A stretch of DNA of 64,000 bases from assembly GCF_904830925.1 (NCBI RefSeq), contig NZ_LR882967.1, positions 3,682,106 to 3,746,105 of the forward strand. Reading direction: 5' to 3'. The notes beneath the pieces are model-generated. The model had not been told where the DNA came from. It did no database searches and worked only from the letters and a program-made list of their open reading frames with translations. The DNA comes from Planktothrix pseudagardhii (lineage in GTDB: Bacteria; Cyanobacteriota; Cyanobacteriia; Cyanobacteriales; Microcoleaceae). Position numbers and translations under genes: made by a program. Positions 7,126 to 35,168 of the stretch are shown here, piece by piece. Positions within the stretch are counted from its first letter, which is position 1, and the number at the start of each line of letters is the position of its first letter.

Positions 7126-7604
7126 TCAAGGTGTCGAAACAGTAGCAGCCGCTAGAAATTGCTCAATTTGATGGGGTTGCATAAAGGATAAATATTTCTG
7201 GGCAAATTCTGGAGGTAAAAGTTCAATTAAAAATTGATTTTCTACCCAAAATTCTATCACATCAAACGCATTTTCTCGATTACAGCGAACCGCTCGCCAT
7301 TCGTTTTCTGCTGCAATAGCTTCAATTTCCTCTTGAGTAATGGGAACAGAAAGAGCCAGATGGGTTGCACTATAGTTAGAACCCCAAGCATTATGGGTAA
7401 ATAGAACATCTTGATATCCGGTTCCCGGTGTTAATTCTGTGCCGAAGGGATAGACCTCAATGGCGGTTCCATATTCATCTAACATTAACACAAAATAACT
7501 ACCGGGGTGGGGGGAAAAGGAGCAAATTTTCCTTGAGAAATCTGGGCTAGAACTTCAGCGACTTGACGGGGATTTTTAGCTGGAATAGAAAGGTGATGAA
7601 TCAT
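7126..7604 (-). pseudogene. VOC/glyoxalase-like protein, apparently frameshifted in a poly-C tract (or homopolymer sequencing error)
   Basis: a 39-aa ORF (MIHHLSIPAKNPRQVAEVLAQISQGKFAPFPP...) starting at 7604 and the 121-aa ORF 7126-7491 are in different frames and overlap at CCCCCCACCCCGG; together they would give one ~158-aa protein. Confidence 0.4.
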
Positions 7605-7660: not shown

Positions 7661-8050
7661 TCAGGTTTGAGTAGGATCAACAAAGGTGTAAAGATTATTC
7701 CTACAAACATTAATCTGGTAGTCTTCCAAGATTTGCCCATCAGCAAATACAGCACGAATATCGTAAAAACACCGAGCCGAGTTTGGATCAGAGAATAAAA
7801 CTTGAACACTTTGCCCTGTTGGTAACACATCGGTTTGCAAAATGTCGTATTCCCAATTATCAAGGCTCGAATCAGACAGATAGAGTTCTGTTACCATTTT
7901 ACTACTGTTATTGGCAATCACAAAATCCGACTTATCAGCGATCGCGCGCTGACTATGAAACATCACGAGGGGAAGAACTAAGAAGGCTGTAAATAATCGA
8001 CTGATGGGTAAGGTTGAGGGTAAAGGAATCTGGAACATTTCTAATTGCAC
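7661..8050 (-). CDS. secreted hypothetical protein (signal peptide)
   Basis: 129 aa; N-terminal hydrophobic h-region LFTAFLVLPLVMF; no known domain. Confidence 0.45.
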   Translation of the reverse strand: MQLEMFQIPLPSTLPISRLFTAFLVLPLVMFHSQRAIADKSDFVIANNSSKMVTELYLSDSSLDNWEYDILQTDVLPTGQSVQVLFSDPNSARCFYDIRAVFADGQILEDYQINVCRNNLYTFVDPTQT

Positions 8051-8378
8051 CTCAGCATCTGTTCAAAACTGGGAAATTCCAGTCTAGTCAAGGTTTAATG
8101 ATCGGCAATTTATCAAAATCAAGAGAGAATAATTGGAGACTAGAGGAAGATCCCGTTAAGATAAGATATAAATCGAGAAGAAGTGAGGAATTAATTTCCT
8201 TGCTTCTTCTCAATGTAGAACCCAAGATAACGCCTATCTACAGGTACGTTACACTGGAGAATAAACCGAGAAAAACCGTTTGAGTTGGAGTCAGAAGGAA
8301 TTCTCAAATCTAAAGTTAAGGTAGGATCGGGAAAAAGTCGGGAAGGTATCGCATTTCAAGGGAAAGATTAAACTCACC

Positions 8379-10748
8379 ATGAAAATTTTGTTGATCGAAG
8401 ATGATCCAATTTTTGCATCAATGTTGGTACAATCTTTAACCAACCAGCGTTATATTGTCGATCAAGCTGAAGATGGTCAAATGGGGTGGGAATATGCTCA
8501 AAGTACCACTTATAACTTAATTGTCATTGATGTAGGATTACCTAAATTAGACGGTATTACGCTGTGTCAAAAATTACGTTATCAAGGCAGTACCATCCCG
8601 ATTTTATTAATAACCGCTAAAGACGGAACAAGCGAGCGCATCCGAGGTTTAGATGCGGGTGCTGATGATTATTTGATTAAACCGATTGATATTGCCGAAT
8701 TTCAAGCGAGAGTTCGGGCATTATTACGACGAGGTGAAGTTTCCCATTCTTCCATCTTAGAAATTGGAAATTTACAACTAAATCCGGTAACTTGTCAAGT
8801 TCATTATGCCCATCAACCCATTACCTTGACCCCCAAAGAATATAGTTTATTAGAATTATTAATGCGAAACCCCGCACGGGTTTTTAGTCGGGCTGAACTG
8901 ATTGAATATTTGTGGAGTTTTGATGATCCACCCCAAGAAGAAAGCGTTAAAGCTCATATTAAAGGACTGAGACAAAAATTAAAAGCCGTTGGTGCGGCGG
9001 AGTGGATTGAAAATGTTTATGGGTTGGGTTATCGTCTCAGTGCAAAACTCCAAACAACGCCCTCTGTTTCTGCTGATTCTCCTCAGCCCACAATCGAAAT
9101 TTCCCTAGAACAACAGTTTAACCAAGCTAAAGAAAAACTCTGGAATCAATATCAAGATTTATTAATAGAACGGTTAGCGATTTTACAACATTTAGCGATC
9201 GCCTTAACCACAAACACTCTGCTTCCTTCCCTGCGTAACGCCGCCGAACAAGCCGCCCATAAATTAGCCGGAGTTCTAGCCATGTTTGACCTAGAACAAG
9301 GGACAGAAATTGCTAAAAAAATTGAACAGAATTTAGAAGGAGATCAGGCCCTAACCTTTGAGCAAATCCAACTGTTACAATCCTATATTCACGAATTAGA
9401 ACAGTTACTTCCTCACTCAATGTCTGAAACCGATCAATCTCCTCTGCCTTTCCCGACCTCAACCCCCCCAAATTTGGAAATAAATCTTTCCCCCAATGTG
9501 AGTTCCTTACCTGAATATTCAGTTTCCGAGATTTCCCCTCGCCTGTTATTAATTGATTCCGATCCCGAATTCGGAAAAGCTCTGCAATCTTTAGCAGATT
9601 CTATGGGGTTAGCTTGGCAACAAATCCCCACCTTAGCAGAAGCAAAAACTTGGTTAAACCTCAATACTCCAGAGGTTGTTGTTTTCAATGACTATCCTGA
9701 TATTAAAACCGAAGACCGATCCCAACTCATTATAGATTTAGCCAAACGCACTCCTCCCATTCCCGTCTTAGTCCTAACCTCCACAGAAGGTTTAATGGAT
9801 CGAGTCACAGTAGCTCGTGCAGGGGGTCGCAGAATCTTCATTAAACCTGTGACCCCAACCCAAATTTGGGAAGCCACCAGCCAACTCTTACAAGCCTCTC
9901 CGCACTCCAAAGTCAATGTTTTGGTTGTCGATGACGACCCCTTATTTTTAGCCACCTTGCGTCCCGTTTTAGAGCCTTGGAGGATAAGAATGACGGGACT
10001 CAGCGACCCCCTGCGGTTTTGGGAGGTTTTGAAATCTGTCTCACCGGATTTATTAATTTTAGATGTGGAAATGTCCCCGGTTAGTGGGATCGAACTTTGC
10101 CAAACCGTTCGGGCTGATCCCCATTGGCAAGGATTACCCATTGTGTTTCTCACGGCTCATTGTGATAGTAAAACCATTCAACAGGTATTTGCGGCGGGTG
10201 CGGATGATTATGTCAGCAAACCCGTCATGGGGCCAGAACTATTAACTCGCATTACTAACCGTTTAGAACGGACTCGATTATTACAAACATTATCTACAAA
10301 AGATCCGATTACAGGGTTAGCAAATTATCTCCAGTCTAGCCAAGAATTAGAACAACAAATCCAGAAGTGTCAACAATTAGAACAACCGTTTTCTTTGGGA
10401 GTATTAACTTTTAGTCAACTGCATAACATTAATCTTGAATATGGGCATTTGATTAGCTATCAAGTTTTGCAACGGTGGGGGCGTTTATTTCAAGGAATGA
10501 CTACGGTTGGAGTTGAAACGATTGGATATTGGGGAAATGGGGAATTTGTGGTGGGAATGCCGGGGTTAACTCAAGCAGAAGCTCAGGAACACCTATCTGA
10601 TGTCTTGATTTCTCTTCGACAGCAGGTGTTTACTACTTTGGAAGGACAACGGTTTCAGGTCGTTTGTGAGGTAAAAATTACAGAATTTCCTACCCAGGGA
10701 CAAACATTACAACAATTATATCAACAGGTTCATCATCGTAATGGATAG
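8379..10748 (+). CDS. multidomain response regulator: REC + OmpR-type winged helix + HPt + pseudo-REC + REC + degenerate GGDEF
   Basis: 789 aa. N-terminal REC (phospho-acceptor D in IVIDVGLP) and wHTH (trans_reg_C). An HPt-like helix with AHKLAG. A second receiver lacking the Asp (VVVFNDYPD). A third, canonical REC (LLILDVEM). A C-terminal GGDEF fold in which the active-site motif reads GNGEF. Confidence 0.8.
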   Translation: MKILLIEDDPIFASMLVQSLTNQRYIVDQAEDGQMGWEYAQSTTYNLIVIDVGLPKLDGITLCQKLRYQGSTIPILLITAKDGTSERIRGLDAGADDYLIKPIDIAEFQARVRALLRRGEVSHSSILEIGNLQLNPVTCQVHYAHQPITLTPKEYSLLELLMRNPARVFSRAELIEYLWSFDDPPQEESVKAHIKGLRQKLKAVGAAEWIENVYGLGYRLSAKLQTTPSVSADSPQPTIEISLEQQFNQAKEKLWNQYQDLLIERLAILQHLAIALTTNTLLPSLRNAAEQAAHKLAGVLAMFDLEQGTEIAKKIEQNLEGDQALTFEQIQLLQSYIHELEQLLPHSMSETDQSPLPFPTSTPPNLEINLSPNVSSLPEYSVSEISPRLLLIDSDPEFGKALQSLADSMGLAWQQIPTLAEAKTWLNLNTPEVVVFNDYPDIKTEDRSQLIIDLAKRTPPIPVLVLTSTEGLMDRVTVARAGGRRIFIKPVTPTQIWEATSQLLQASPHSKVNVLVVDDDPLFLATLRPVLEPWRIRMTGLSDPLRFWEVLKSVSPDLLILDVEMSPVSGIELCQTVRADPHWQGLPIVFLTAHCDSKTIQQVFAAGADDYVSKPVMGPELLTRITNRLERTRLLQTLSTKDPITGLANYLQSSQELEQQIQKCQQLEQPFSLGVLTFSQLHNINLEYGHLISYQVLQRWGRLFQGMTTVGVETIGYWGNGEFVVGMPGLTQAEAQEHLSDVLISLRQQVFTTLEGQRFQVVCEVKITEFPTQGQTLQQLYQQVHHRNG

Positions 10749-11475
10749 TCATTTATTGGCAACTTCATCAAATTTTCAGTTATCTTCTCAGAGTATTCAT
10801 GTTTGGCAAACAAACCTGAAGCGATCGCTTTCATCTCTGCAATTTTACCAAACTATTCTTTCTGCTGATGAAAAAAAACGGGCTGAACGCTTTAAATTTG
10901 AAAAAGATCAACAGGCCTTTATCATCGCACGGGGAACCCTAAGAATGATTTTAAGTCAGTATTTAACTTTGTCGCCAGAAGAGATTAAATTTAAGTATAG
11001 TTTCAAAGGAAAACCCTGTTTAGATCAAAATCCCTTACCGCTACATTTTAATTTATCTCATTCTTATGGAAAAGCTATTTATGCGATCGCCTTAGAAAAA
11101 AATATCGGTGTAGATATTGAATATATTCGTAAAATTGAAATCCTCTCTTTAGCAAAACGCTTTTTTTGTGATTCCGAATATCAATGGTTAAATTCTTTAC
11201 GGTTAGAAGAACAAGATGCTGCATTTTTTCAACTCTGGACGTGCAAAGAAGCTTATCTAAAATCAACAGGAGAAGGCTTAGTGGGGTTACAAGATATTGA
11301 AATTAAAACGCCTTTAAGTTCAGTCTTACAAATTTTAAAGATTTCCCAAAATTCAGAAATTGCCAAAAATTGGACATTAAAAACAATTCAAACCGCAGAA
11401 AACTATAGAGCAACTTTAGCCATTGAGGGAATAAATTATCAGTTTAAATTTTGGCAGTGGATAGATGAAGAATGA
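10741..11475 (+). CDS. Sfp/HetI-type 4'-phosphopantetheinyl transferase
   Basis: 244 aa; FNLSHS...GVDIE...W(T)xKEAxxK motifs of the PPTase superfamily; overlaps the preceding gene by 8 bp. Confidence 0.8.
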   Translation: MDSHLLATSSNFQLSSQSIHVWQTNLKRSLSSLQFYQTILSADEKKRAERFKFEKDQQAFIIARGTLRMILSQYLTLSPEEIKFKYSFKGKPCLDQNPLPLHFNLSHSYGKAIYAIALEKNIGVDIEYIRKIEILSLAKRFFCDSEYQWLNSLRLEEQDAAFFQLWTCKEAYLKSTGEGLVGLQDIEIKTPLSSVLQILKISQNSEIAKNWTLKTIQTAENYRATLAIEGINYQFKFWQWIDEE

Positions 11476-11707: not shown

Positions 11708-14440
11708 TTAATTTTGATCAAGCGTAAAATTTTTGTATTGTTGAATCGGAATCTCAATCATAAACTCTGAGCCTTCTCTAACTTGAGACGAACACTTTAA
11801 TTGACCGTGATGTCTTTCCACAACAATTTGATAGCTAATAGCTAATCCTAAACCCGTCCCTTTCCCGACAGGTTTTGTTGTAAAGAAGGGATCAAATAAT
11901 TTATTTTGAACCGCTTCCGTCATTCCCATCCCATTATCAATAATACGGATAATAACCTGTTCATTTTGAAGGATTTCAGTGGTAATAGTAATCCTAGGTT
12001 GCCAAGAATTTAAGGAATTACAAGGGATCTCCTCCTGAGAAGATTGAGAAAAAAGAGCCTCATCCCGTTCTAGTCTGCGCTCATGAACCGCATCAATCGC
12101 ATTCGTTAGTAAATTCATAAAAACTTGATTAATTTGACCTGCATAACATTCAACTAAGGGTAAATCACCATAATTTTTTATCACCTGAATCATTTCTTTT
12201 CCCCCTGCTTCTGATAAGCGATTTTGGAGAATTAATAATGTATTTTCTAAACCTTCATGCAAATTCACCTTTTTCACAGAAGATTCATCTAAACGAGAAA
12301 AATTGCGTAAGGATAAAACAATTTGTTGAATGCGACTCGCCCCTGCTTTCATCGAACTTAAGAGTTTGGGTAAATCCCGTTTTAAAAAATCTAAATCAAC
12401 CGTTTCCGTCACCTCTTGAATAGCAGGAACAGGTTCAGAATGATGCTGTTGATAAAGTTCAATTAAACTTAATAAATCCTCCATGTATTGGGTGGCATAA
12501 TCCACATTTCCGTAAATAAAATTAATCGGATTATTGATTTCATGGGCCACACCCGCCACCAACTGACCTAAAGAAGACATCTTTTCCGTTTGAATTAAAT
12601 GGGCTTGAGTTTGTTGTAATTTCTTTAACGTTGTTTCTAATTCTAAGGTTTGAGCTTTTGCTAACGTCGCCGCTTCACGGGTTTGGTTATAGAGTTGGGC
12701 TTGATTAATTGCGATCGCCACTTGCGCCGTTACAGCCTGTAATAATTCCACTTCAGAATCAGTCCAGCATCGAGGTTCCTGATGATTAGCACAGACTAAA
12801 ACCCCAATTTCTCCCATTTGGGTTTGAATAGGAAGAGACAGAACAGACACAAATCCAAACTGAAGTAAACAGGATTTTTCTTGAGAATCAGGAAGATTAA
12901 CAACATGATTAATTCGTCCTATGTTTAAATCTAAATATTGCTGTGACCAAACCCCAACTTCTTCTAAAGAATAGCGACCAACAATATGGGCAAAAGCCGG
13001 ATCTTTAGCTTCCGTTACAATTTCCCAATAAGCCGGAGTAAAATAGGGTTTAGACGGATTAGAGTAAACGGAATTAAAATTCATTTCTTCCCGGCGATAC
13101 CAACAAAAATAGCAGCGATCAACCTTCATTAACTCCCAAACTTGCAAAACGGTTGTTTCTAAAATTGTTTTCAAATCTAAAGAATTACGAATTTGGTTAG
13201 CTAAATGATTAATTAATTTTTCCTGTTGAGCCAATTGTCGGAACCGAACTTCCGATTGTGCTAATAATTCTTCCGCAACTTTTCGTTCTGTAATATCTTC
13301 ATAAGTTCCTAAAATTCCCACCACATTACCCTCTGGATCATGCAGAGGAATTTTATTAGTTTCTATCCAACATTGTTCGCCATTGGCATTCAATAAAGTT
13401 TCGATAATCCGATAACGGGGGGCATTAGCTGCCATGACTTCTTGATCAATTTTTCGATAATATTCAACTTCAGCTAAAGTCCAAGGTAAATCATAATCCG
13501 TTTTTCCAATTAAGTCTTGAGGAGAATTAAACCCCGCATCTAAAGCGACCTGTAAATTGCACCCTTGATAAACTGAATTTCGATCTTTCCAAAAAATCCG
13601 TTGCGGGATCGTATTCATAATTAACTTTAACATTTGTTGGGATTGTTCTAGTGCTTCCTCTACTTTTTTGCGATCATTAATATCAGTCAGTGTACCAATA
13701 TATCCCGTTACCTTCCCGAACGGATCTTTGATCGGAACCGCTTGACCTAAGACCCAAACCCCACTTTGATCTAATGAGTTTAAACGATATTCTGAAGAAA
13801 AAGGGCGTTGATTTTGAATCGCATTTGACCATTCTTGAATTAACCGTTCTCGATCATCAACATAAATGCTATCAACCCAACCTCTATTTAACGCATCTGA
13901 AGGTTGCTGTCCCGTAATTCGACATCCATATTCATTCACATATAAACAGTGTCCCGTTACATCCGTTTCAAACAAACCCACTGGACAAGCTTGCATTAAA
14001 GATTGATAACGCTGTTGGGTTGTTGTTAACGCTTGGTTGATGGCTTCAAGCTCTTTAGGCGTGCGAAGTTGTAATAATTTGGGAACTAAAGGAATAATTG
14101 TACAAGATGTAAAAATTGAAATTAAAGCCGTGATTGCCTTCAATCCTCCTGATAACCAATATAGAGGATACCAAAGGGTAAAAATCGCCATTAAATGGTT
14201 GAGTCCACAGGCAAAAATAAAGGCACTAAATAGGATAAAAACTTGAGGGTAGGGTAAATCTTGACGCTGGCGAACAAAATAAATTAATGAAATTGGGATG
14301 GAAAAATAAGCCAACGCAATCAACAAATCTGAAACAAGATGAAGCCCCATTAATTGAGATTGCCAAAGGTAGCAGGAACCATGAGGCATCCATGAAGCCA
14401 TTGCAACCAGTTTTTGTGAAATTATCCAGGTCAAGTTCAT
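11708..14440 (-). CDS. membrane-anchored multi-sensor histidine kinase (TM region, 2 PAS, GAF, HisKA, HATPase_c)
   Basis: 910 aa; N-terminal 4-5 TM helices; PAS-like repeats with TERK linkers; GAF; H-box AHEINNP; G1/G2 boxes (DNGMGM, GTGLGL). Confidence 0.85.
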   Translation of the reverse strand: MNLTWIISQKLVAMASWMPHGSCYLWQSQLMGLHLVSDLLIALAYFSIPISLIYFVRQRQDLPYPQVFILFSAFIFACGLNHLMAIFTLWYPLYWLSGGLKAITALISIFTSCTIIPLVPKLLQLRTPKELEAINQALTTTQQRYQSLMQACPVGLFETDVTGHCLYVNEYGCRITGQQPSDALNRGWVDSIYVDDRERLIQEWSNAIQNQRPFSSEYRLNSLDQSGVWVLGQAVPIKDPFGKVTGYIGTLTDINDRKKVEEALEQSQQMLKLIMNTIPQRIFWKDRNSVYQGCNLQVALDAGFNSPQDLIGKTDYDLPWTLAEVEYYRKIDQEVMAANAPRYRIIETLLNANGEQCWIETNKIPLHDPEGNVVGILGTYEDITERKVAEELLAQSEVRFRQLAQQEKLINHLANQIRNSLDLKTILETTVLQVWELMKVDRCYFCWYRREEMNFNSVYSNPSKPYFTPAYWEIVTEAKDPAFAHIVGRYSLEEVGVWSQQYLDLNIGRINHVVNLPDSQEKSCLLQFGFVSVLSLPIQTQMGEIGVLVCANHQEPRCWTDSEVELLQAVTAQVAIAINQAQLYNQTREAATLAKAQTLELETTLKKLQQTQAHLIQTEKMSSLGQLVAGVAHEINNPINFIYGNVDYATQYMEDLLSLIELYQQHHSEPVPAIQEVTETVDLDFLKRDLPKLLSSMKAGASRIQQIVLSLRNFSRLDESSVKKVNLHEGLENTLLILQNRLSEAGGKEMIQVIKNYGDLPLVECYAGQINQVFMNLLTNAIDAVHERRLERDEALFSQSSQEEIPCNSLNSWQPRITITTEILQNEQVIIRIIDNGMGMTEAVQNKLFDPFFTTKPVGKGTGLGLAISYQIVVERHHGQLKCSSQVREGSEFMIEIPIQQYKNFTLDQN

Positions 14441-25218: not shown

Positions 25219-28200
25219 TTATGAAAGTCTAGCCTTAATGACAGCTTGATAAAATTCTTCTAAAGCCGTCACACAAACTTGATCATCAAACAGAAGATGT
25301 TGGCGTTCACTCATCTGTTGAGAAATTGTTTCACGTCCTATACAATCTAACCCTAATTTGACCGCAATTTCAAGATATTCTGCTTCATTTTTGGCAATAG
25401 TTTCTGTTAAACCTATCATTTTTAGAAAACTATCCGCATGGCGACCTCGCATAAATTCCCCAGGACAGGTTACAATGGGTAAATAACAAGCGATCGCTTC
25501 TAAAGAGGTATTTCCTCCCGACCAAGTAAAGGTATCTAAAAACACATCCGAAAGTTGGTTTAACATTAAATAATCAAAGCGTTCGTCAACTTTTCGATGT
25601 AAACAATAATCCTGATAATTTAAGCCATAGTTGGAAAAAGTTTGATTTAAGCGTTCATTAAGTAATGTTCCTCGGAAAAATAAAAACTTAGCGTTCGGAA
25701 CTTTGAGTGCTATTTTAGGTAAAATATAATCATATTGGGGAAGATATTTAAAGGGAGCTTGACAACATAAATAAATCACCGCATCTTCGGGTAGATTATA
25801 GTCTGATCGAGTTTTAACTAACGGTGGAATATCTTGAGGTTTTGGATAAGCAACCCCAATATTAGGTAATAAAATTAAGGTTTCTGAATAATGTTCCTGT
25901 GCATTTTCCGGTTCCATTAATTGACTTGATAGGAAATAATCAATGGTTGGGAGTCCTGATGTGACGGGATGACCCCAAGCGGTGCATTGAATGGGTGCTA
26001 AACGTAAGGTGGCGAGTTCCATTGTTGGGGGGTTCATCCCAATTTCGGGATAAACTAAAATATGCAGTTGATCCTTAATAATTTGTTCACAAACGGCTTC
26101 AAAATTGTTAGGAATATGATAAAATTGATGGCTATATTGTCTAAATTGTTCCGTAACAGGATCAGGAGAATTCCCGGTATAATAAGCGTAAATTTCAAAC
26201 TGATTCCGGTTAGCATAGCGTAACCAACCAATTAACCACAGTGAACCACTATAACAATGCAAATAACTAGAAACATATCCCACTCGAATTTTATCCTTAA
26301 CTGTTGGTAGGGTTAGCGGTTGAACCCACTGAGGATATTTTAAGCACATAATTTGATGCAGAAAATTGCCATAAATTTTTTGTTCTTCAATCACATTTCT
26401 CGCTTGATACCCTAAATAAAAGTTGGTAAATCGTCCCATTCCTAAAAATGCTTGATCTACCGTTTCAGGATTAGTTAAATCTGTGGTTGCAATTAAATTT
26501 TGTAATCCTTGATTAAACCGATCTCGATAATTGTTGATTTCCTCAATAGAGTGGTACAACATCGGTACTATGAGATTTTTAAGCAGGGTAAAGGTATAAT
26601 CTTTGGGTAAGCATTCTGAGGCGATTTCCGCTTGTTTAACAGCTTCTTCTGTTCTTCCTTGATAAAGAAGGTTCATAATTAATGTAAAGTGAAGGGGAGC
26701 AAAATCAGGATATATTTTTGTTCCAATTTTCAAGATATCTATGGCATCATTCGGTTGATTGAGTTGCCAGTAACAGTGATTGAGTTTTTCATAAAGATCA
26801 ACATCTCCTACTTGCAAATTTAGGATTTTTTGATATTCTGTGATCGCTGCTTCATAATTGCCTAATTGGTACAAGCGATCGCCAAAACTACGATAATAAG
26901 AAATCGGATTTTTTTCAATTTCATCCGTTAGAGCTAAGTTATGCAGAATATCAGGCTGATCTGGAATAATCCTTAAACCTTTTTGATAGGTTGCTTTAGC
27001 GAATTGAAATTGATTTTGCAATAAAAATAAATTGCCTAAATTCAGGTAACTACAAAAATGATTAGGGTTAATCTCTATGGCTTGACGATAAATTGTTTCT
27101 GCTTCTGCAAATTGCCCTTGTTGCGTTAAGAGATTTCCTAAGTTATTATAAGCATCAATATGATCGGGTTTTAATTCGATTGTTTTTTGGTAAGCTGCGA
27201 TCGCTTGTTCAACTTGATTCAATTTTTCATAACTCATTCCTAAATAATAATAAGCTAAATTATTAGTTTGATCTTGGTTTAAAACATGAGATAATATTAA
27301 GATAGATTGAAAATAATTTTCTTTTTGGTAATATAAAATTCCTAAATTAACCCAAACTTCGGTGTTTTCTTCTTGCCATCTAAGCAATAATTTATAGTGA
27401 TTTTCAGCTAAATCCAACTGTTGGTTTTGATGAGCAGTTATCCCTTGTTGATAAATTTGTTGTAACTGTTCGTTTGTGGGTTTTTGTTCTGCTAATTCAA
27501 GAATTCCTTGGATGACAGAATCTTGACGTTGTGCTTGAAATATTTGCACTGAATAATTAAACGTTCTTTTCTGATTCCAACTTAAGACTTGAATTTGATC
27601 AGGGAGATGACAATTTACTAAAATAGACAATTCTGGAAACAGTTTTGCTTGTGGAAAAGAGGCTAGAAAATCCCAGATTGCTTGCTGAACAAAACTAATA
27701 TTTCCATGATCAACAATAATTAAAGCTGAATCCGATAAAAGGGGTTTAGCTAATAATAAAGCTAATAAAGTAGAACGATAATCGGTCGAACTCTGGACAA
27801 CATAAACTCCTATTTTAATCTCCGTTTCCAGTTGTCGCAGTTCTAATAAAAATTCTTCTACATCTTGGTTATAAAAACAAACCTGTTCCTCCAGGTTAAA
27901 CTGATGTAAATTTTTAAATAACTGTTCTAAACCTTCACCTTTTGGTGTAAAATCAGGATTGTCATTAATAGCATAGGCAATAGCTTCTGGTTGATTCAAA
28001 AGCGCACCAATCAATGTTAAACCCTGTTGTGTTCCAATCTCACAATAAATTTCATTGGGTTCCAGACTAGCAACCGCACAGTTGAGTAACGGGAGCAAAT
28101 TCTGGGGAAACTGCTCTGAAGCGAGGTTAAGCAACTGCTGAAACCGTTTATATTGCGGGTGGACAAAGACAGTTCCCCATTGTTCATATAAACGGGGTAG

Positions 28201-28233
28201 TTCTTGAATAAAGCGTTGATCATCCATAGTCAA
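25219..28233 (-). CDS. methyltransferase-like domain + TPR array + GT41 (O-GlcNAc-transferase-like) glycosyltransferase
   Basis: 1004 aa; ~12 TPR units in the middle; C-terminal GT41 catalytic halves (RVGYVSSYLH..., PIQCTAWGHPVTSG...); the N-terminal ~230 aa resemble a class I SAM methyltransferase. Confidence 0.75.
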   Translation of the reverse strand: MTMDDQRFIQELPRLYEQWGTVFVHPQYKRFQQLLNLASEQFPQNLLPLLNCAVASLEPNEIYCEIGTQQGLTLIGALLNQPEAIAYAINDNPDFTPKGEGLEQLFKNLHQFNLEEQVCFYNQDVEEFLLELRQLETEIKIGVYVVQSSTDYRSTLLALLLAKPLLSDSALIIVDHGNISFVQQAIWDFLASFPQAKLFPELSILVNCHLPDQIQVLSWNQKRTFNYSVQIFQAQRQDSVIQGILELAEQKPTNEQLQQIYQQGITAHQNQQLDLAENHYKLLLRWQEENTEVWVNLGILYYQKENYFQSILILSHVLNQDQTNNLAYYYLGMSYEKLNQVEQAIAAYQKTIELKPDHIDAYNNLGNLLTQQGQFAEAETIYRQAIEINPNHFCSYLNLGNLFLLQNQFQFAKATYQKGLRIIPDQPDILHNLALTDEIEKNPISYYRSFGDRLYQLGNYEAAITEYQKILNLQVGDVDLYEKLNHCYWQLNQPNDAIDILKIGTKIYPDFAPLHFTLIMNLLYQGRTEEAVKQAEIASECLPKDYTFTLLKNLIVPMLYHSIEEINNYRDRFNQGLQNLIATTDLTNPETVDQAFLGMGRFTNFYLGYQARNVIEEQKIYGNFLHQIMCLKYPQWVQPLTLPTVKDKIRVGYVSSYLHCYSGSLWLIGWLRYANRNQFEIYAYYTGNSPDPVTEQFRQYSHQFYHIPNNFEAVCEQIIKDQLHILVYPEIGMNPPTMELATLRLAPIQCTAWGHPVTSGLPTIDYFLSSQLMEPENAQEHYSETLILLPNIGVAYPKPQDIPPLVKTRSDYNLPEDAVIYLCCQAPFKYLPQYDYILPKIALKVPNAKFLFFRGTLLNERLNQTFSNYGLNYQDYCLHRKVDERFDYLMLNQLSDVFLDTFTWSGGNTSLEAIACYLPIVTCPGEFMRGRHADSFLKMIGLTETIAKNEAEYLEIAVKLGLDCIGRETISQQMSERQHLLFDDQVCVTALEEFYQAVIKARLS

Positions 28234-28485
28234 ACTTAGGAGCGTTGAATAGAGCCTATATAATATAGTACAAGCTTGTCATAGGCAATGAGTTGAATTT
28301 GCATTAAAAGAAACCTGATCGTTTATGGGATTATATCGGGTATTATAGGAGTACAGTAACTTTCACTGAATCTAAGCATTAACTTAGTAGTATTTAGACT
28401 AAGAAAGCTCAATTTTTTCTGATTATCTTAAGCCAATTAATCTACATAAAATTAGTAATATTAATAGATTCATTAGTATTACTAA

Positions 28486-31400
28486 TTGAAAAAGATAACT
28501 TATTTTAGTTTCGAGGATCAAATAATGTCTGAGCAGAGTTCGAGTTTAAATTCCATAATTTCTCCTGAAATTAAAAATGATGAATTTTATGATTATATTC
28601 AAAGAATTGCTCAAGAAGAAAATATAAAATATATTTTAGAAATCGGTTCATCATCGGGAGAAGGCAGCACAGAAGCCTTTGTTAAAGGAATTCGGAATAA
28701 CCCAAGCCGACCGAATTTATTTTGTATGGAAGTTTCTCAAATACGGTTTGAACAATTAAAGAATAGATATGAAAAAGACGAGTTTGTTAAATGTTATAAT
28801 GTATCTTCTGTTTCACTAGAGAAATTTCCTGATCAGACAGATGTTATTGAATTTTATAATCAACAACAATCTGGGTTAAATTATTATCCTTTAGAGCAAG
28901 TTTTGGGTTGGCTTCAACAAGATATCGAATATATTAAAGCTTCTCAGGTGGAAACGAATGGGATAGCAAAAATTAAACAAACTAATAATATTGATTTTTT
29001 TGATGTTGTTTTAATTGATGGTTCAGAATTTACAGGAGTTAGTGAATTACAAGAAGTATACGGTGCTAAATTAATTTTATTAGATGATATTAATACTTTT
29101 AAAAATTATACTAATTATCATAGGCTTCTTTCTGATCCCCAATATACATTAGTTAATCAAAATATTAACCTTCGTAATGGATACGCTATTTTTAGAAAAA
29201 ACACATTTTCTTTTGAAACTGAGCAATCTGAACAAAAGCTCGTTAAAAACCTAGTAACTTCAGGAATGACTGTTTTTGATGTTGGAGCTAATATTGGAGA
29301 TTATTCTATATTATTGAGTCAACTTGTAGGGAATTCAGGAAAAGTTTATTCATTTGAACCCACTTCTAACACTTTTCAAACCTTGCAAAACCGATTACAA
29401 GAAAATAAATGTGATAATGCTTCTGTTTACCAAAAAGTAATATTTTCTAATAATCAACCTATTGAGTTTAATGAATTTTCTGATGAATATTCAGTATGGA
29501 ATAGCATTGGATCTCCTCAAATGCCTGATCCCAATAAAAGTACAGAATATGTTCCTATTGTTAAAACAGAAATTTTAGAAGCTATTACTCTCGACTCTTT
29601 CTGTGAAGAAAATAATATCCAATCTATAGATTATTTAAAAATTGATGTAGAAGGTGCAGAAAGTGATGTTCTGCTGGGTGCTACTGAATTATTAAAAAAT
29701 CAGTCGATTCAATTTATCCAATTTGAAATTTCTCAAAAAATGCTCGAAGGATTAAATCGTAATGCTCAAACAACTTTTGATCTGTTGATTCAAAATGGTT
29801 ACGAGTGTCATCGCATCCAAGTCAACGGGGATATTGGTGAACAGGTTACTGGCTCTAACTCTTTCTATGAAAATTATATTGCTTTCCCACAACTACCGAT
29901 TCATTTCTTTACCATTGTTCTAAATGGGCAACCGTTTATCCGATACCATATTGATATTTTTAATAAATTAAGTTGTCAATGGCACTGGCATATTATTGAA
30001 GGAGTTGCTGACTTAAAACATGATACTTCTTGGAGCTTAAAACTGGGAGGTAAACTAACAGATCAGTTTCATGATCATGGACGAAGTAAAGATGGAACGT
30101 CAGAGTATTTAGATCAACTCGCTCAACAATATCCAGAAAATATCACGATTTACCGCCAACCTAAAGATATTGTTTGGGATGGCAAGCGAGAAATGGTGAA
30201 TGCTCCTCTTTCTAATATCCAAGAAGAATGTTTATTGTGGCAAATTGATGTAGATGAACTCTGGACAGTAGAACAAATCCATGCCGCTCGTCAAACCTTT
30301 GTTAATCATCCTGAAAAAACCGCAGCGTTTTACTGGTGTTGGTATTTTGTGGGAGAAAATTTACTGATCAGCACTCGTAATTGCTATACACAAAATCCTC
30401 AACAAGATTGGTTAAGAACTTGGCGATTTAAACCAGGAATGGTTTGGGCTGCCCATGAACCGCCGATTTTAGTAGAAACTTTACCCGATGGTCAACAGCA
30501 AAATGTAGCAGGTATTAATCCCTTTTTACATCATGAAACTGAACAAAAAGGCTTAGTCTTTCAACATTTTGCCTATATTATGCCAGAACAATTGCAATTT
30601 AAAGAAGAATATTATGGCTATCAAAATGCACTAGCACAATGGCAGAATTTACAATCCGCCACTCAATTTCCTGTATTTCTGCGGGAGTATTTTGCTTGGG
30701 TACAAGATCAAACTCAAGTCAATACTGCAACAGCCTATGGTATAACTCCGATTGTTTATAGAGACCGTCAGACAGAAACTTGGAAATTTCGGAAGCTTGA
30801 AGGTTCAAAAATTTTACCTTCACATTACGAACAATTATCACCTAAAATCTTGATTGATGGTGTGTTTTTCCAAATGTATAATACCGGAATTGCCCGGGTT
30901 TGGCGTTCCTTATTTGAGGAATGGGCCAATAACGGTTTTGGTCGTCATCTCGTAATTTTAGATCGCAACGGAACTATCCCCAAAATACCTGGGCTTTGGT
31001 ATCGGACAATCCCTGCTTATGACTATGCAAACACCGCTAATGATCGGCAAATTCTTCAGCAGGTTTGTGATGAAGAAGGAGCAGACTTATTTATCTCAAC
31101 TTACTACACGACTCCCATTTCAACCCCCTCAGTATTTATGGCTTATGACATGATTCCTGAAGTTTTGGGTGGAAATCTTAACGAGCCGATGTGGCGAGAA
31201 AAACATCATGGCATCCGTCATGGGTCAGCTTATATAGCGATTTCAGAAAATACAGCAACTGATTTGGTCAAATATTTTCCAGAGATTAATGCACCTGTAA
31301 CTGTTGCTTACTGCGGTATTTCAAGTCTTTTTTCTCCAGCAACAGCCGAAGAAATTCATCAATTTAAAATTAAGTATGGAATTCAAAAACCTTACTTTCT

Positions 31401-32325
31401 CCTAGTGGGAGCAGGCAGTAACTATAAAAATGCCATTTTATTTTTTCAAGCTTTTTCCCAACTCCAAAGTAAACAAGGCTTTGACATTGTGACAACAGGT
31501 AGTGGCTATCTACTGGCTGAAGAGTACCGAGCTTTTACTTCAGGTTGTGTTGTTCATCCCCTACAACTCTCCGATGATGAACTCAGACTCGCTTATTCAG
31601 GAGCAACGGCACTGGTTTACCCCTCCAAATACGAAGGGTTTGGAATGCCTGTAGCAGAAGCTTTAGCTTGCGGTTGTCCAGTAATTACTTGTCCCAATGC
31701 TTCACTTCCAGAAGTTGCTGGAGAAGCTGCAATTTACGTCAATGACGATGATATTAATGAACTCGCTAATGCTCTTTGTGAGGTGCAAAAACCCCTAGTT
31801 CGTCAGAAATTAATTCAGGCTGGGCTACAACAATCGAAAAAGTTTTCATGGTCAAATATGGGGAATGTTGTGAGTCAGGCGTTAATCAATGCAACGTTGC
31901 TGCGTTTACCCTTAAAAACAACAAATCTTATTATTTTTCCAGATTGGAATCAGCCTGAAGAAATACTATATGCTGAATTAGCAGATGTGATTCGAGAAAT
32001 TGCCTCTCATCCGAACAAGCATCAGATTACATTACTGATTGATCATCACCCTCTAACAGATGAAGAGGCGGATTTAACCTTATCTAGTGTGATTATGAAT
32101 CTACTGATGGAAGAAAATGTAGAGCTTGATGAAAGTTTAACTATTGCTTTCATCGGGAACATCAGTTCAGTCCAGTGGTCAGCTTTACATTCTCGTCTGC
32201 AAGGTCGAATTATCTTAGAACATGAAAATCAAGAAGCTTTGCTCCAAGTTCAGGGAGAAAAGCTCAGTTCTTATTCTTTAACCCAAGTCAGAAATTTATC
32301 CTTGCCATTGAAAACTGATGATTGA
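28486..32325 (+). CDS. giant multi-domain sugar-modifying enzyme: class I MTase + FkbM-family MTase + GT-A-like region + GT4 glycosyltransferase + conserved C-terminal domain
   Basis: 1279 aa; FkbM motif [12 protein letters not shown]; GT4 motif [18 protein letters not shown]; the C-terminal ~150 aa ([10 protein letters not shown]...) is homologous to the C-terminus of 34141-35133. Confidence 0.7.
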
Positions 32326-32873
32326 TCATAATCAACCTTAAAATTTATTCATCAATGAGGAGTTTTCTGATGAACATCAATCAACACTTGATTTTAAAGC
32401 GACCTGTATTTTTTTACCTTTATGAAGACAGCTTTTCCCATTTAAGTATTTGTTTAGCAGAAGGATTTAAAGAACTAGGAATACCTTTTTATTCTAATAT
32501 TAATTATTGGAAACTTTCTGAGCATCCTGATGAATATTTGTTTGAGCATAACCCTGAGATCACTGCTGATGACTGCTCTATTGTTGTCTTAGATACAAAA
32601 TGGCTCAATAGTAAAGGTGATTTTCCTGAAAACTTTTTTCAGCCAGGTAGACAATACATAACAGTTTACCTAGATGAGATGGATGGTTTAACCATTTGGA
32701 ATCCACCATTAGAACAGTTTGACCTACGATTTAGAACTCACTATAATCAAAGGTCAAAACATCCTGAAAACTGCGTTTCTTGGGTTTTTGGTTTGTCAAA
32801 CCGCATCATTGAACAAACTCAAGACTACCCTCAATTTCAAGAACGACAGTCTTCTAAGCTGTTAAGCATCTAA
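32322..32873 (+). CDS. hypothetical protein; possibly the N-terminal part of a glycosyltransferase gene interrupted by IS630
   Basis: 183 aa; start overlaps the upstream stop (ATGA); ends 7 bp before the IS630 left end. Confidence 0.4.
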   Translation: MIIINLKIYSSMRSFLMNINQHLILKRPVFFYLYEDSFSHLSICLAEGFKELGIPFYSNINYWKLSEHPDEYLFEHNPEITADDCSIVVLDTKWLNSKGDFPENFFQPGRQYITVYLDEMDGLTIWNPPLEQFDLRFRTHYNQRSKHPENCVSWVFGLSNRIIEQTQDYPQFQERQSSKLLSI

Positions 32874-32879
32874 ATAGGG

Positions 32880-34130
32880 TATAATGAAAAACCAAGTTTA
32901 GAAAAATCAATCAAAAGATGCCTGCTAAAAATCATTTAAATGAAAAGCAAGTAGAGAAACTACAGAAAAGATTGAAAGAGGAAGAAAATGGACAAATCCG
33001 AGAAAGAATCTTGATTTTATTATTGCTAAATGATGGTAAAAAGCAAAGTGAAATTGCCAAGTTTTTGGGCTGCTCATTAAACAAAGTATGTTATTGGTGT
33101 GTACATGGAGACCCTGACAAATTAGAAAGCCTAAAAGATGAAAGAATGAAAGGAAATTATAGAAAAGCCACAGACAAATATATAGAGATATTATTAGAAA
33201 CAGTAGAAAAAGAACCGGAAGAATTAGGATATGAATTTGGGAGATGGACAGGAGAAAGATTGGCAACTTATTTAGAACAAATCACAGGAATCAAATTAAG
33301 TAGTTCACAAGTGAGAAAGATATTAAAGGAAAAAAAGTATGTTTATTTGTGGGCAAAGTATAGCTTAGAAGAGAAAAGAGATCCAGAAAAAAGAAAATTA
33401 TTTAAAGATAAAATAGAAGAATATTTGAAAATAGCAAAAGAAAGTCCAGAACAATTACAGGTATGGTTTTGGGATGAAAGTGGATTTAATTTAAGAGTGA
33501 TAAAAAGAAAGAATTGGTGTAAAAAAGGGAAGAGGAAACAGATTAGAGGAGACAGGAGGAAAGGAAGAGTTAATGTGATGGGAGGATTGAGGTACTCGGA
33601 TAAAAAAAGATTTGTAGAATTTCTGGATAAAGGAAATGCAGATAATTTTTATCAAGTGTTAAAAAGTTTTTATCAAGAGCTAATTTATGAATGGGTATTA
33701 GCGGGAAATCAAGCAGAAGAATTTGTAGAAAAAGGAGCTAAGATCCTGATTATTCTTGACAATGCAAGTTTTCACAAAAAAGAAGAGTACCTAGAAAAAA
33801 TTAAAGCAGAAATGCCGAATGTCTATTTAGAATTTCTTCCAGCATATAGTCCAGATTATAATTTAATTGAATTAGTCTGGCATTCAGCTAAAGAATATAT
33901 AGCTCATCGACTCTTTAAATCAGTTGATGAGCTAGAGTGTTTATTACATCAGCTTTTAAATGAAGGACAGTTATCTATTAAATGGGGACGTAAACTTAAA
34001 AACAAAGGTAATGCTATAATCACAGTTTAAATACACAACAGCTTATCATCTTTAACTTTAGAGTAGAGCAAGATCAGATAATAACAACGAGAAGTTGGTT
34101 CAAATTTGAAGCTGGGTTTTCATTTTTAAA
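32880..34130 (+). mobile_element. IS630-family insertion sequence (~1.25 kb); ends approximate
   Basis: single DDE transposase ORF; imperfect terminal inverted repeats ATAATGAAAAACC / GGGTTTTCATTTTT; TA dinucleotides at both flanks consistent with IS630 TA target duplication. Confidence 0.65.
32918..34030 (+). CDS. IS630/Tc1-mariner family DDE transposase
   Basis: 370 aa; N-terminal HTH (KQSEIAKFLGCSLNKV); DDE region WFWDESGF...ILDNASFHK...YSPDYNLIE. Confidence 0.85.
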   Translation: MPAKNHLNEKQVEKLQKRLKEEENGQIRERILILLLLNDGKKQSEIAKFLGCSLNKVCYWCVHGDPDKLESLKDERMKGNYRKATDKYIEILLETVEKEPEELGYEFGRWTGERLATYLEQITGIKLSSSQVRKILKEKKYVYLWAKYSLEEKRDPEKRKLFKDKIEEYLKIAKESPEQLQVWFWDESGFNLRVIKRKNWCKKGKRKQIRGDRRKGRVNVMGGLRYSDKKRFVEFLDKGNADNFYQVLKSFYQELIYEWVLAGNQAEEFVEKGAKILIILDNASFHKKEEYLEKIKAEMPNVYLEFLPAYSPDYNLIELVWHSAKEYIAHRLFKSVDELECLLHQLLNEGQLSIKWGRKLKNKGNAIITV

Positions 34131-34140
34131 TAGCGGATTA

Positions 34141-35133
34141 TTGGTTTTTGAAAATCCCGTCCGACGGATCTCAAAACAACAGATTCTTCCTCTCTTTCAA
34201 GGAATTCTTAATATTGATGATCGGATTGATCAATTTGATCAACCGCCTTCTGATAGCTACCATGCCTTGCAGTGGGAACAAACAGGAAAAAGGCATCATC
34301 CTCAATATTACAAGCGATTAAAAGAATCAGTGGCTTGTGCTGGTTTTGCAGGCTGTGTTATTCCCTATAATAACTCAGGAGAATTCTTAGTAGAATGGTG
34401 GGATAGTTGGAGATTTTGGGAATCTTTGGCTGCTGGATGTGTTACTTTCCATGTAGACTTTGATAAATATGGTATTGATCTGCCTGTGATCCCCGAAAAT
34501 TGGCGACATTATATTGGGATTGATTTAGAACATCCACAAGACACGATTGATCGAATTATCAGTGAACCCAATATTTTAGAGCAAATTTCTACTGAAGGAC
34601 GCCAGTGGGCTATCAATCATTACAGCCCAGTTCCGACAGCATTACGATTTTTAGAAACGATTTCTGCATATCAAAACGCCAAAAATGGTTTTTTTGAAAC
34701 TTCTCAGCAGTCCTTAGAGCAAACGATTAATTTACCTTTAAGGAAAATTAATCTTGTTATTTTCCCCGATTGGTCTCAACCTGAACTCTCTTTAAGTTTA
34801 GAGCTAAAACCGATACTTCAAACCCTCGCCAATCACCCGGATGCTCTGGACATCACATTATTACTGGATAATCGAAATAAAACGGATGAAGAAGCTAATT
34901 TAATTTTATCGAGTGTGGTAATGGATCTTTTAATGGAGGGGGAAGTTTCTCTTGGATCGGAACACTTAGAAATTACGTTGATTGGTCAAGGAAATTCTAA
35001 CCAATGGCCAGTTTTACTTCCTAGACTTTTGGGTCGGATTCAATTAGAAAATGAAGACCAAACAGCGATCGCAGAAAGTAAAGCTGACCAACTCCCCTGC
35101 TATTCTCTGGATTGTTTAAACTGGCAATTTTAG
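34141..35133 (+). pseudogene. C-terminal fragment of a glycosyltransferase (GT1 C-terminal-like) carrying the shared ~150-aa C-terminal domain; no ATG for >250 codons
   Basis: ORF opens at TTG immediately after the IS630 right end; RFWESLAAGCVTF resembles the Glyco_trans_1_2 motif; the C-terminus aligns with the C-terminus of 28486-32325. Confidence 0.45.
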
Positions 35134-35168
35134 ATGAATAGATCTAAGTATAGCAGGGTTTTTGTCCA

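Follow-up and report, generated by a model that had tools for sequence, protein, structure and literature searches.

The window, that is, the whole 64-kb stretch of Planktothrix pseudagardhii DNA that was analysed (31-45% G+C in 2-kb windows), carries at 8379-10748 (+) an open reading frame (ORF) for a 789-aa complex response regulator, which overlaps at its 3' end the gene of an Sfp/HetI-like 4'-phosphopantetheinyl transferase (PPTase). The regulator is probably a functional phosphorelay transcription factor of the RcaC type that bears a catalytically dead GGDEF domain (GGDEF*) and that would autoregulate a lineage-specific operon carrying the PPTase. This reading is carried by the domain set, the conservation of the phosphorelay residues, the modelled fold of the histidine phosphotransfer (HPt) domain, the loss of cyclase residues, purifying selection, the distribution of gene order among relatives and the enrichment of a direct repeat upstream of the gene. 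The regulator is 97% identical to a protein of Planktothrix sp. FACHB-1365, a genome in which gene order was the same as in the window over the ~18 kb compared.

Domains and phosphorelay residues of the regulator

The regulator was searched against Pfam and modelled with AlphaFold from a 58-sequence alignment (mean predicted local distance difference test score, pLDDT, of 80), and domain boundaries were taken from the model. Residue conservation was counted across the 58 family members of this alignment; counts for the wider superfamily refer to its best 150 cluster representatives. Pfam returned three Response_reg stretches, Trans_reg_C at residues 146-220, Hpt at 267-342 and GGDEF at 641-785, and the resulting order is receiver (REC), OmpR winged helix, HPt, pseudo-receiver, canonical REC and degenerate GGDEF.

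The first receiver (REC1, aa 1-118, 8379-8732, +) has the acidic pair Asp8/9, the acceptor Asp51 (8529-8531), Thr79 and Lys101. Asp8, Asp51, Thr79 and Lys101 were invariant (58/58), and position 9 was Asp in 52 members and Glu in 6. The OmpR/PhoB-type winged helix (aa 127-220, 8757-9038, +) was identified by Trans_reg_C (PF00486, 83 bits) and by the model, and aligned end to end with the solved OmpR-family regulators 1kgs, BasR and RpaA; complete receiver residues with Trans_reg_C directly after the receiver are as found in the OmpR/PhoB family. The model places disordered linkers at aa 224-240 and aa 349-385, before and after the HPt domain (aa 239-343, 9093-9407, +). This region scored 30.2 bits against a gathering cut-off of 24.6 bits in Pfam and is modelled as a four-helix bundle with an exposed His294 (codon 9258-9260, motif AAHKLAGVL) on the second helix, predicted to resemble known HPt domains. 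Its profile matched the HPt domain of YojN/RcsD and the P1 domain of CheA best among PDB entries, with the phospho-His aligned and weak E-values (0.02-0.13). The His294-Lys-Leu-Ala-Gly string was invariant in 58/58 members.

The two C-terminal receivers differ in their acceptor positions. In the pseudo-receiver (aa 389-506, 9543-9896, +), Asn437 (9687-9689) aligns to the acceptor Asp of 4q7e, so that this domain is not a canonical receiver; the position was N in 24 family members, S in 23, G in 4, A in 3 and D in 2, and the receiver Thr was replaced by Ala in 46/58. The domain is missing altogether from the closest non-Planktothrix relatives, P0003 and P0007. The third receiver (REC3, aa 512-613, followed by a long connecting helix at aa 618-640; together 9912-10298, +) is canonical, with Asp562 (10062-10064) and Lys614 invariant (58/58) and Thr592 replaced by Ser in a single member. 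Among the 150 superfamily representatives, Asp51 was kept in 142, His294 in 141 and Asp562 in 135. One polypeptide thus joins REC, winged helix-turn-helix (wHTH), HPt and further receivers with a conserved phosphorelay His and Asp, as is characteristic of RcaC-type regulators. An earlier reading of this DNA, made from the letters alone (the sequence-only reading), had described an N-terminal REC with winged helix, an HPt domain with the AHKLAG histidine, a receiver without its Asp and a canonical REC; Pfam, model and alignment agree with it on each domain, every sequence string that it quoted is present in the window, and its description of the protein was correct throughout.

RcaC has three CheY-like receivers and a winged helix (PMC4390838) and acts at the end of the RcaE-RcaF-RcaC relay in chromatic acclimation (PMC13492139; PMC5737509). 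RcaC of Fremyella diplosiphon (Tolypothrix sp. PCC 7601), a regulator of type III chromatic acclimation, and the window protein both contain REC, an OmpR-class winged helix and extra receivers, and the REC-wHTH-HPt-REC-REC core of the latter, likened by architecture and published descriptions, corresponds to RcaC. In contrast to RcaC, the window protein has an additional ~150-aa C-terminal degenerate GGDEF domain, and its middle receiver is without the acceptor Asp. The HPt histidine of RcaC is reportedly essential for signalling, and its four-step relay is reported to end at the N-terminal Asp (work of Kehoe and Grossman in 1997 and of Li and Kehoe in 2005). F. diplosiphon also encodes a 761-aa member of the GGDEF* subfamily described below (P0077 = EKF02542.1). 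Since this length differs from that of RcaC, which is ~650 aa, RcaC and the window protein are, judging by length, more likely paralogues than orthologues. RcaC itself could not be identified by source names among the RcaC-sized representatives, the names being generic, and no rcaE- or rcaF-like gene was present in the 64-kb window.

By analogy with the four-step RcaE-RcaF-RcaC phosphorelay, a phosphoryl group from an unlinked kinase, a hybrid kinase or a stand-alone receiver would be passed to His294 and/or Asp562 of the window protein, with Asp562 as a possible donor to His294, and then to Asp51 of REC1, and phospho-Asp51 would turn on DNA binding by the winged helix.

The degenerate GGDEF domain

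The GGDEF domain (aa 641-786, 10299-10736, +) scored 54.7 bits in Pfam, its fold was also present in the model, and it was aligned to the solved cyclases DgcR and 5m3c. The cyclase signature, GG(D/E)EF in active enzymes, reads GNGEF (aa 719-723, nt 10533-10547), and by position the family has G in 58/58, N in 50/58, G in 58/58, E in 56/58 and F in 58/58. The metal-binding Asp is replaced by Thr677 (S/N/T in the family), the catalytic-site Lys by His682 (R/H in the family) and the guanine-contacting Asp by Tyr694 (mostly N in the family), which leaves Asn685 as the sole upstream active-site residue kept. The inhibitory site (I-site), an RxxD five residues before the signature, reads VGVE in the regulator and is RxxE in 34/58 and CxxE in 16/58 members. 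YWG-x-GEF is conserved family-wide, and YWG-N-GEF is almost invariant. The alignment and the missing I-site bear out the earlier proposal that this GGDEF domain is degenerate and probably inactive.

The unit of REC3, long helix and GGDEF aligns with DgcR (6zxb/6zxc) and with PleD (1w25). Unlike PleD, WspR and DgcR, the window protein has lost the active-site residues and the RxxD I-site. The order of receivers differs as well: the phosphorylated receiver of PleD stands ahead of its adaptor receiver, but here the pseudo-receiver comes before the canonical REC. Neither DNA-binding nor HPt domains are present in PleD and its relatives. Most probably the unit serves dimerisation or regulation in response to phosphorylation; it may be a nucleotide sensor, and would not be a synthase of cyclic di-GMP (c-di-GMP).

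A sensor role proper for GGDEF* would mean that GTP or c-di-GMP is bound by what is left of the active site or in the I-site region and that this tunes phosphotransfer or DNA binding allosterically. Nucleotide-binding degenerate GGDEF domains are known from PopA, PelD and the GGDEF* domain of Caulobacter PdeA, and in the present family YWG-N-GEF, Asn685, His690 and Glu713 are nearly invariant among the 58 members despite the loss of catalysis, RxxE stands exactly at the I-site position in 34 of them, and the domain has a ratio of non-synonymous to synonymous substitution rates (dN/dS) of 0.056. The I-site Arg is, however, Val in the window protein and Cys in Nostoc, Tyr or Asn stands in place of the guanine-contact Asp and the metal Asp is gone, which makes a canonical binding mode unlikely, and a structural or dimerisation role accounts equally well for the conservation. 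Nucleotide sensing is on balance a rather unlikely role for the domain.

Upstream repeat and the PPTase gene

A direct repeat, TCGGGAA-AAAG-TCGGGAA, with an 11-bp period lies at 8327-8344 (+), 35-52 bp upstream of the regulator start, and is the only exact copy in the 64-kb window. Direct repeats of 11-bp period have the geometry typical of OmpR/PhoB operators. The repeat was found at -50 to -52 from the ATG in 5/5 orthologous upstream regions, and both half-sites shift together to TCGAGAA in three contigs of a related organism (L084-L086). In distant family loci the pattern T[CA]G[AG]GAA-N4-T[CA]G[AG]GAA was searched on either strand within 450 nt upstream of the regulator; it was present in 20/79, an enrichment of 30-fold over the rest of the loci and of 4.8-fold over other intergenic DNA (Poisson P ~2e-8). 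The upstream repeat is a candidate autoregulatory site of the OmpR type, and the regulator probably binds TCGGGAA-N4-TCGGGAA upstream of its own gene.

Blocks of the divergent intergenic region are conserved between Planktothrix and L084/L085, the repeat at 8327-8344 being the clearest. The same region holds an imperfect inverted repeat (8154-8232; hairpin arms 8154-8190 and 8196-8232), which is conserved in L084/L085 and deleted in Planktothrix serta; 8173-8190, in the 5' arm of the hairpin, and the conserved block 8255-8272 are copies of the direct-repeat motif with two mismatches each. Rfam searches of the conserved 5' region gave generic hairpin matches only, far under the gathering scores, and no family. 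Several intergenic copies of the motif per locus were seen in L079 (5724-5763, -), L023, L024 and L054; in L079, consecutive half-sites at the 11-bp period form either a multi-site operator or a short dispersed repeat.

The PPTase gene (10741-11475, +) encodes 244 aa with the Pfam domains PF01648 (ACPS, 71 bits) and PF22624 (AASDHPPT_N, 45 bits), and its translation carries the motifs IGVDIE (GVD) and WTCKEAYLK of Sfp-type enzymes. The best NCBIfam match was HetI (NF042922; 238 bits, under the equivalog cut-off of 370 bits); unlike HetI-type PPTases, this one adjoins no hetM/hetN-type or other carrier-protein genes in the window. An exact-sequence look-up of the PPTase returned no matching record. 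As the sequence-only reading had it, the end of the regulator ORF and the beginning of the PPTase ORF share 8 bp (ATGGATAG, 10741-10748, +), a tight coupling. The same overlap is present in FACHB-1365 and in P. serta PCC 8927, and the L084-L086 contigs have instead a 1-nt spacer (TAAnATG). No terminator was found between the two genes, and the promoter scan was uninformative (17 promoter-like sites against 12 expected, nothing above chance). In this lineage only, the two genes would form an autoregulated operon.

The distribution of the pair was determined in 80 homologous loci taken with 7-kb flanks, in which the PPTase was searched by tblastn. Conserved synteny of regulator and PPTase, which the sequence-only reading had put forward as a check on their association, was not found as a family feature: no locus (0/80) had a PPTase within 7 kb of the regulator homologue, the pair has been lost within Planktothrix too, and PPTase synteny was rejected as a family trait. 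The pair occurs in the window, in FACHB-1365, in P. serta PCC 8927 and in L084-L086, where the regulators are 69% identical to that of the window and without the pseudo-receiver and the PPTases are 55-58% identical. The outer flanks of these loci differ, and two small divergent upstream ORFs are shared by all except P. serta, which keeps only a 62-aa remnant of one of them. Because of these shared ORFs between differing outer flanks, the regulator-PPTase block is ancestral to a small clade, consisting of some Planktothrix and a sister group, and has been eroded since. The ORFs (7126-7491, -, 121 aa; 7661-8050, -, 129 aa) had no Pfam match and are 60-71% identical in FACHB-1365 and L084-L086; the N-terminus of the 129-aa product resembles a signal peptide, and the 121-aa ORF has a homologue close to the regulator in two Nostoc loci (L017, L041).

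Erosion within the genus has taken different forms. In P. serta PCC 8927, a clean in-frame deletion of 388 codons (codons ~115-502, window nt 8728-9883) removes the winged helix, HPt and pseudo-receiver and leaves a 400-aa REC-REC-GGDEF* product (L087 5806-7008, corresponding to window 8379-8727 plus 9884-10748), an arrangement as in PleD/WspR/DgcR-type cyclases, with the PPTase start still overlapped by 8 bp. REC1 (...RVRALL...) and the pseudo-receiver (...SQLLQA...) were joined at their C-terminal helices, which are alike. P. serta, now without the DNA-binding domain, is also without the intergenic DNA corresponding to window nt 8170-8307. Two other Planktothrix lineages have no regulator and keep the PPTase; in one of them homology to the window starts at 10764, just inside the PPTase, and in the other an unrelated 311-aa gene precedes it. 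A Microcoleaceae relative has a 46%-identical PPTase with unrelated neighbours. The coupling to the PPTase is real but clade-specific, is dispensable within the genus and is not part of how the family works.

A functional link of the two products, in which the phosphorelay sets PPTase expression by autoregulation of the operon and so gates the formation of holo-carrier proteins and hence the output of nonribosomal peptide synthetases (NRPS) and polyketide synthases (PKS) in Planktothrix, is an unlikely extension of this coupling. The overlap or 1-nt spacer has been kept down to the 55-58% identity of the PPTases (69% for the regulators) while both flanks differ, and P. serta, having lost the middle of the regulator, has kept its 5' end, the proximal repeat and the 3' overlap, a pattern expected if PPTase expression depends on read-through of the regulator gene. 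Against such gating stand the absence of the PPTase from 80/80 loci of the wider family, the two Planktothrix lineages in which the PPTase gene has entirely different upstream DNA, the Microcoleaceae PPTase that has no such neighbour, and the lack of any carrier-protein, PKS or NRPS gene in the 64-kb window; inheritance alone can maintain an adjacency in so narrow a clade.

The same losses could be taken to mean that the regulator is a decaying relic in Planktothrix with no current function, to which the internal deletion in P. serta, its absence from two other lineages and the loss of the pseudo-receiver in the sister clade would all belong. The reading frame is intact, however, and all phosphorelay residues are present. 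Compared with FACHB-1365, the gene has 23 non-synonymous and 85 synonymous differences (dN/dS 0.07), with every domain constrained (0.056 in GGDEF*, 0.14 in the pseudo-receiver); the P. serta remnant is at 0.06-0.13 and the PPTase at 0.24. Because of this purifying selection on every domain the regulator gene is taken as functional, and the relic or pseudogene reading, which was rejected on dN/dS, is very improbable.

Several points weigh against a functional, autoregulating RcaC-type regulator. Placement of the domains relative to one another is unreliable in the full-length model (predicted template modelling score, pTM, 0.36), and the relationship to RcaC is one of architecture, published descriptions and the HPt His of RcaC. 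The only receiver or kinase gene besides the regulator in the 64-kb window is an ETR1-like kinase, described below. As for the candidate operator, just 20 of the 79 distant loci fit the strict pattern, another 20 copies, some of them in tandem, fall in the remaining intergenic DNA of these loci, and the repeat is just 35 bp from the ATG in a region where the promoter scan was nowhere above chance; the motif may be the mark of a local regulon, or else a repeat dispersed through intergenic DNA rather than an operator.

Family breadth, related regulators and neighbouring genes

Matches to the regulator numbered 4,067 overall, and at least 120 of those listed were full-length homologues (46-58% identity, 99% coverage), from Nostoc, Calothrix, Tolypothrix, Chlorogloeopsis, Scytonema, Leptolyngbya-like genera, Pleurocapsales and Chroococcus; full-length homologues occur in at least 80 cyanobacterial genomes and in many orders of the phylum, frequently under the database name 'multi-component transcriptional regulator, winged helix family'. 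At E<=1e-30, 5,908 cluster representatives (50% identity) matched. Among the best 150 of these, 72 end after REC3 (RcaC-sized, 590-680 aa, cyanobacterial names) and match residues 1-636 only, ~20 have a canonical RWGG(E/D)EF with the metal Asp, Lys and guanine Asp intact, and the remaining GGDEF domains are degenerate in varied ways; most of the 150 keep the canonical hhhLD acceptor in the middle receiver. On sequence grounds the regulator belongs to a distinct YWGNGEF subfamily, in which the catalytic residues of the middle receiver and of the GGDEF domain have been lost and the domains themselves are still conserved. The architecture had been called unusual in the sequence-only reading, a view that does not hold given the RcaC-like core, the spread over at least 80 genomes and the 5,908 representatives; the regulator is not a one-off but an uncharacterised variant of the RcaC-type kind with a conserved dead GGDEF. 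Literature searches by accession, by the database name and on GGDEF, OmpR and Hpt in cyanobacteria found nothing on this family, nor any experimental work on the YWGNGEF subfamily; the last of them gave the unrelated CdgK/CdgS system.

That the domain is still an active, non-canonical diguanylate cyclase, as the kept fold, Glu722, Phe723 and Asn685 and the fully canonical sites of related superfamily members might suggest, is extremely improbable, given that the subfamily has GNGEF fixed, along with the changes seen here as Thr, His and Tyr in place of the metal Asp, the Lys and the guanine Asp.

Two further regulators invite comparison. RfpB is a DNA-binding regulator whose receivers flank a winged helix and which is fed by the kinase RfpA via the single-domain receiver RfpC (PMC4390838, PMC5737509). 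Acting in far-red light photoacclimation, it has naturally lost its C-terminal receiver in some lineages, in parallel to the domain deletions described above; it differs in that no GGDEF is described for it and in that it is linked to a photosystem gene cluster, of which there is none at the window locus. The second is RppA (an OmpR-family regulator, Synechocystis sll0797-type), whose NCBIfam model NF041734 scored 286 bits with residues 1-221 of 789 against a cut-off of 250 bits, and at least one homologue (P0087) is named 'RppA' by NCBI. The 229-position model spans the first 28% of the protein. Since the other 570 residues (HPt, two receivers and GGDEF*) have no counterpart in RppA, the name is an over-annotation for such regulators, an artefact of the N-terminal two-domain unit.

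Downstream of the PPTase, a kinase gene (11708-14440, -) encodes 910 aa with an ETR1-like ethylene-binding N-terminal domain (PF25487, 134 bits), two PAS domains, a GAF domain and HisKA/HATPase. In its motif ACGLNH, Cys and His are spaced as are Cys65 and His69, the copper/ethylene-binding residues of plant ETR1. The sequence-only reading had proposed phosphotransfer assays with this neighbouring histidine kinase; as a likely partner of the regulator it is not supported by the synteny evidence. All Planktothrix loci examined, with and without the regulator, have the order PPTase, ETR1_N kinase (convergent), prfC, aquaporin, radical-SAM, which argues that the kinase is independent of the regulator, and other genes take the place of the kinase in the sister clade, where the regulator-PPTase pair is kept; the kinase was rejected as a conserved partner on these grounds. 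A tblastn search with the kinase gave matches in 47 loci, all of them generic PAS or kinase only. In Nostocales the usual neighbour of the regulator is a same-strand hybrid kinase (PAS-GAF-HisKA-HATPase-REC-REC-Hpt; 27/80 loci), and other kinases and single-domain receivers also lie near the regulator in family loci. The hybrid kinases and single receivers of Nostocales fit a multi-step relay.

Further features of these loci were recorded. In L084 (6807-13922) the genes after the pair are those of a DUF4118-PAS kinase, two single receivers and a DUF1830 protein, and a further, more distant paralogue of the regulator is also present (36-43% identical over the 480 aa that precede the contig end). 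A Uma2-family endonuclease gene lies between PPTase and kinase in L083 (11186-11761), L087 (7948-8523) and L088 (7738-8103) and is absent from the window, where the gap is 232 bp only. In Planktothrix sp. GU0601_MAG3 (L088/L089 8084-10842, 11027-12665) the ETR1-like kinase and prfC are each split into 2-3 ORFs, probably by assembly frameshift errors and not as real pseudogenes. Elsewhere in the window, 45763-47514 (-) encodes a group II intron reverse transcriptase/maturase with HNH (RVT_1, RVT_N, GIIM, HNH), and 25219-37424 is a cluster of large glycosyltransferase genes of locally low G+C (31-33%), with two GT41/TPR proteins and a 1,279-aa FkbM-methyltransferase/GT1 fusion.

The link to the PPTase would matter only if the regulator does control the enzyme, and the comparison suggests a lineage-specific operon and not a general design. 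The full chain of events is improbable. In it, the dead GGDEF would sense nucleotides or dimerisation, and the RcaC-type phosphorelay factor that carries it would bind the repeat and so control its own operon together with the gene of an Sfp-type PPTase; if true, this would place NRPS/PKS carrier activation, and with it toxin and peptide output, under two-component control in a bloom-forming Planktothrix lineage. For the family, RcaC-type regulators are the textbook example of a phosphorelay within a single cyanobacterial transcription factor, and their superfamily is very large and has repeatedly gained, inactivated and lost domains, as with the GGDEF domain (intact or dead), the middle receiver (intact, dead or deleted) and the wHTH-HPt segment removed in P. 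serta. The widespread YWGNGEF subfamily, on which purifying selection acts, is a defined test case for a conserved dead GGDEF on a transcription factor, and the natural series of domain deletions, together with the candidate operator, makes the system experimentally tractable.

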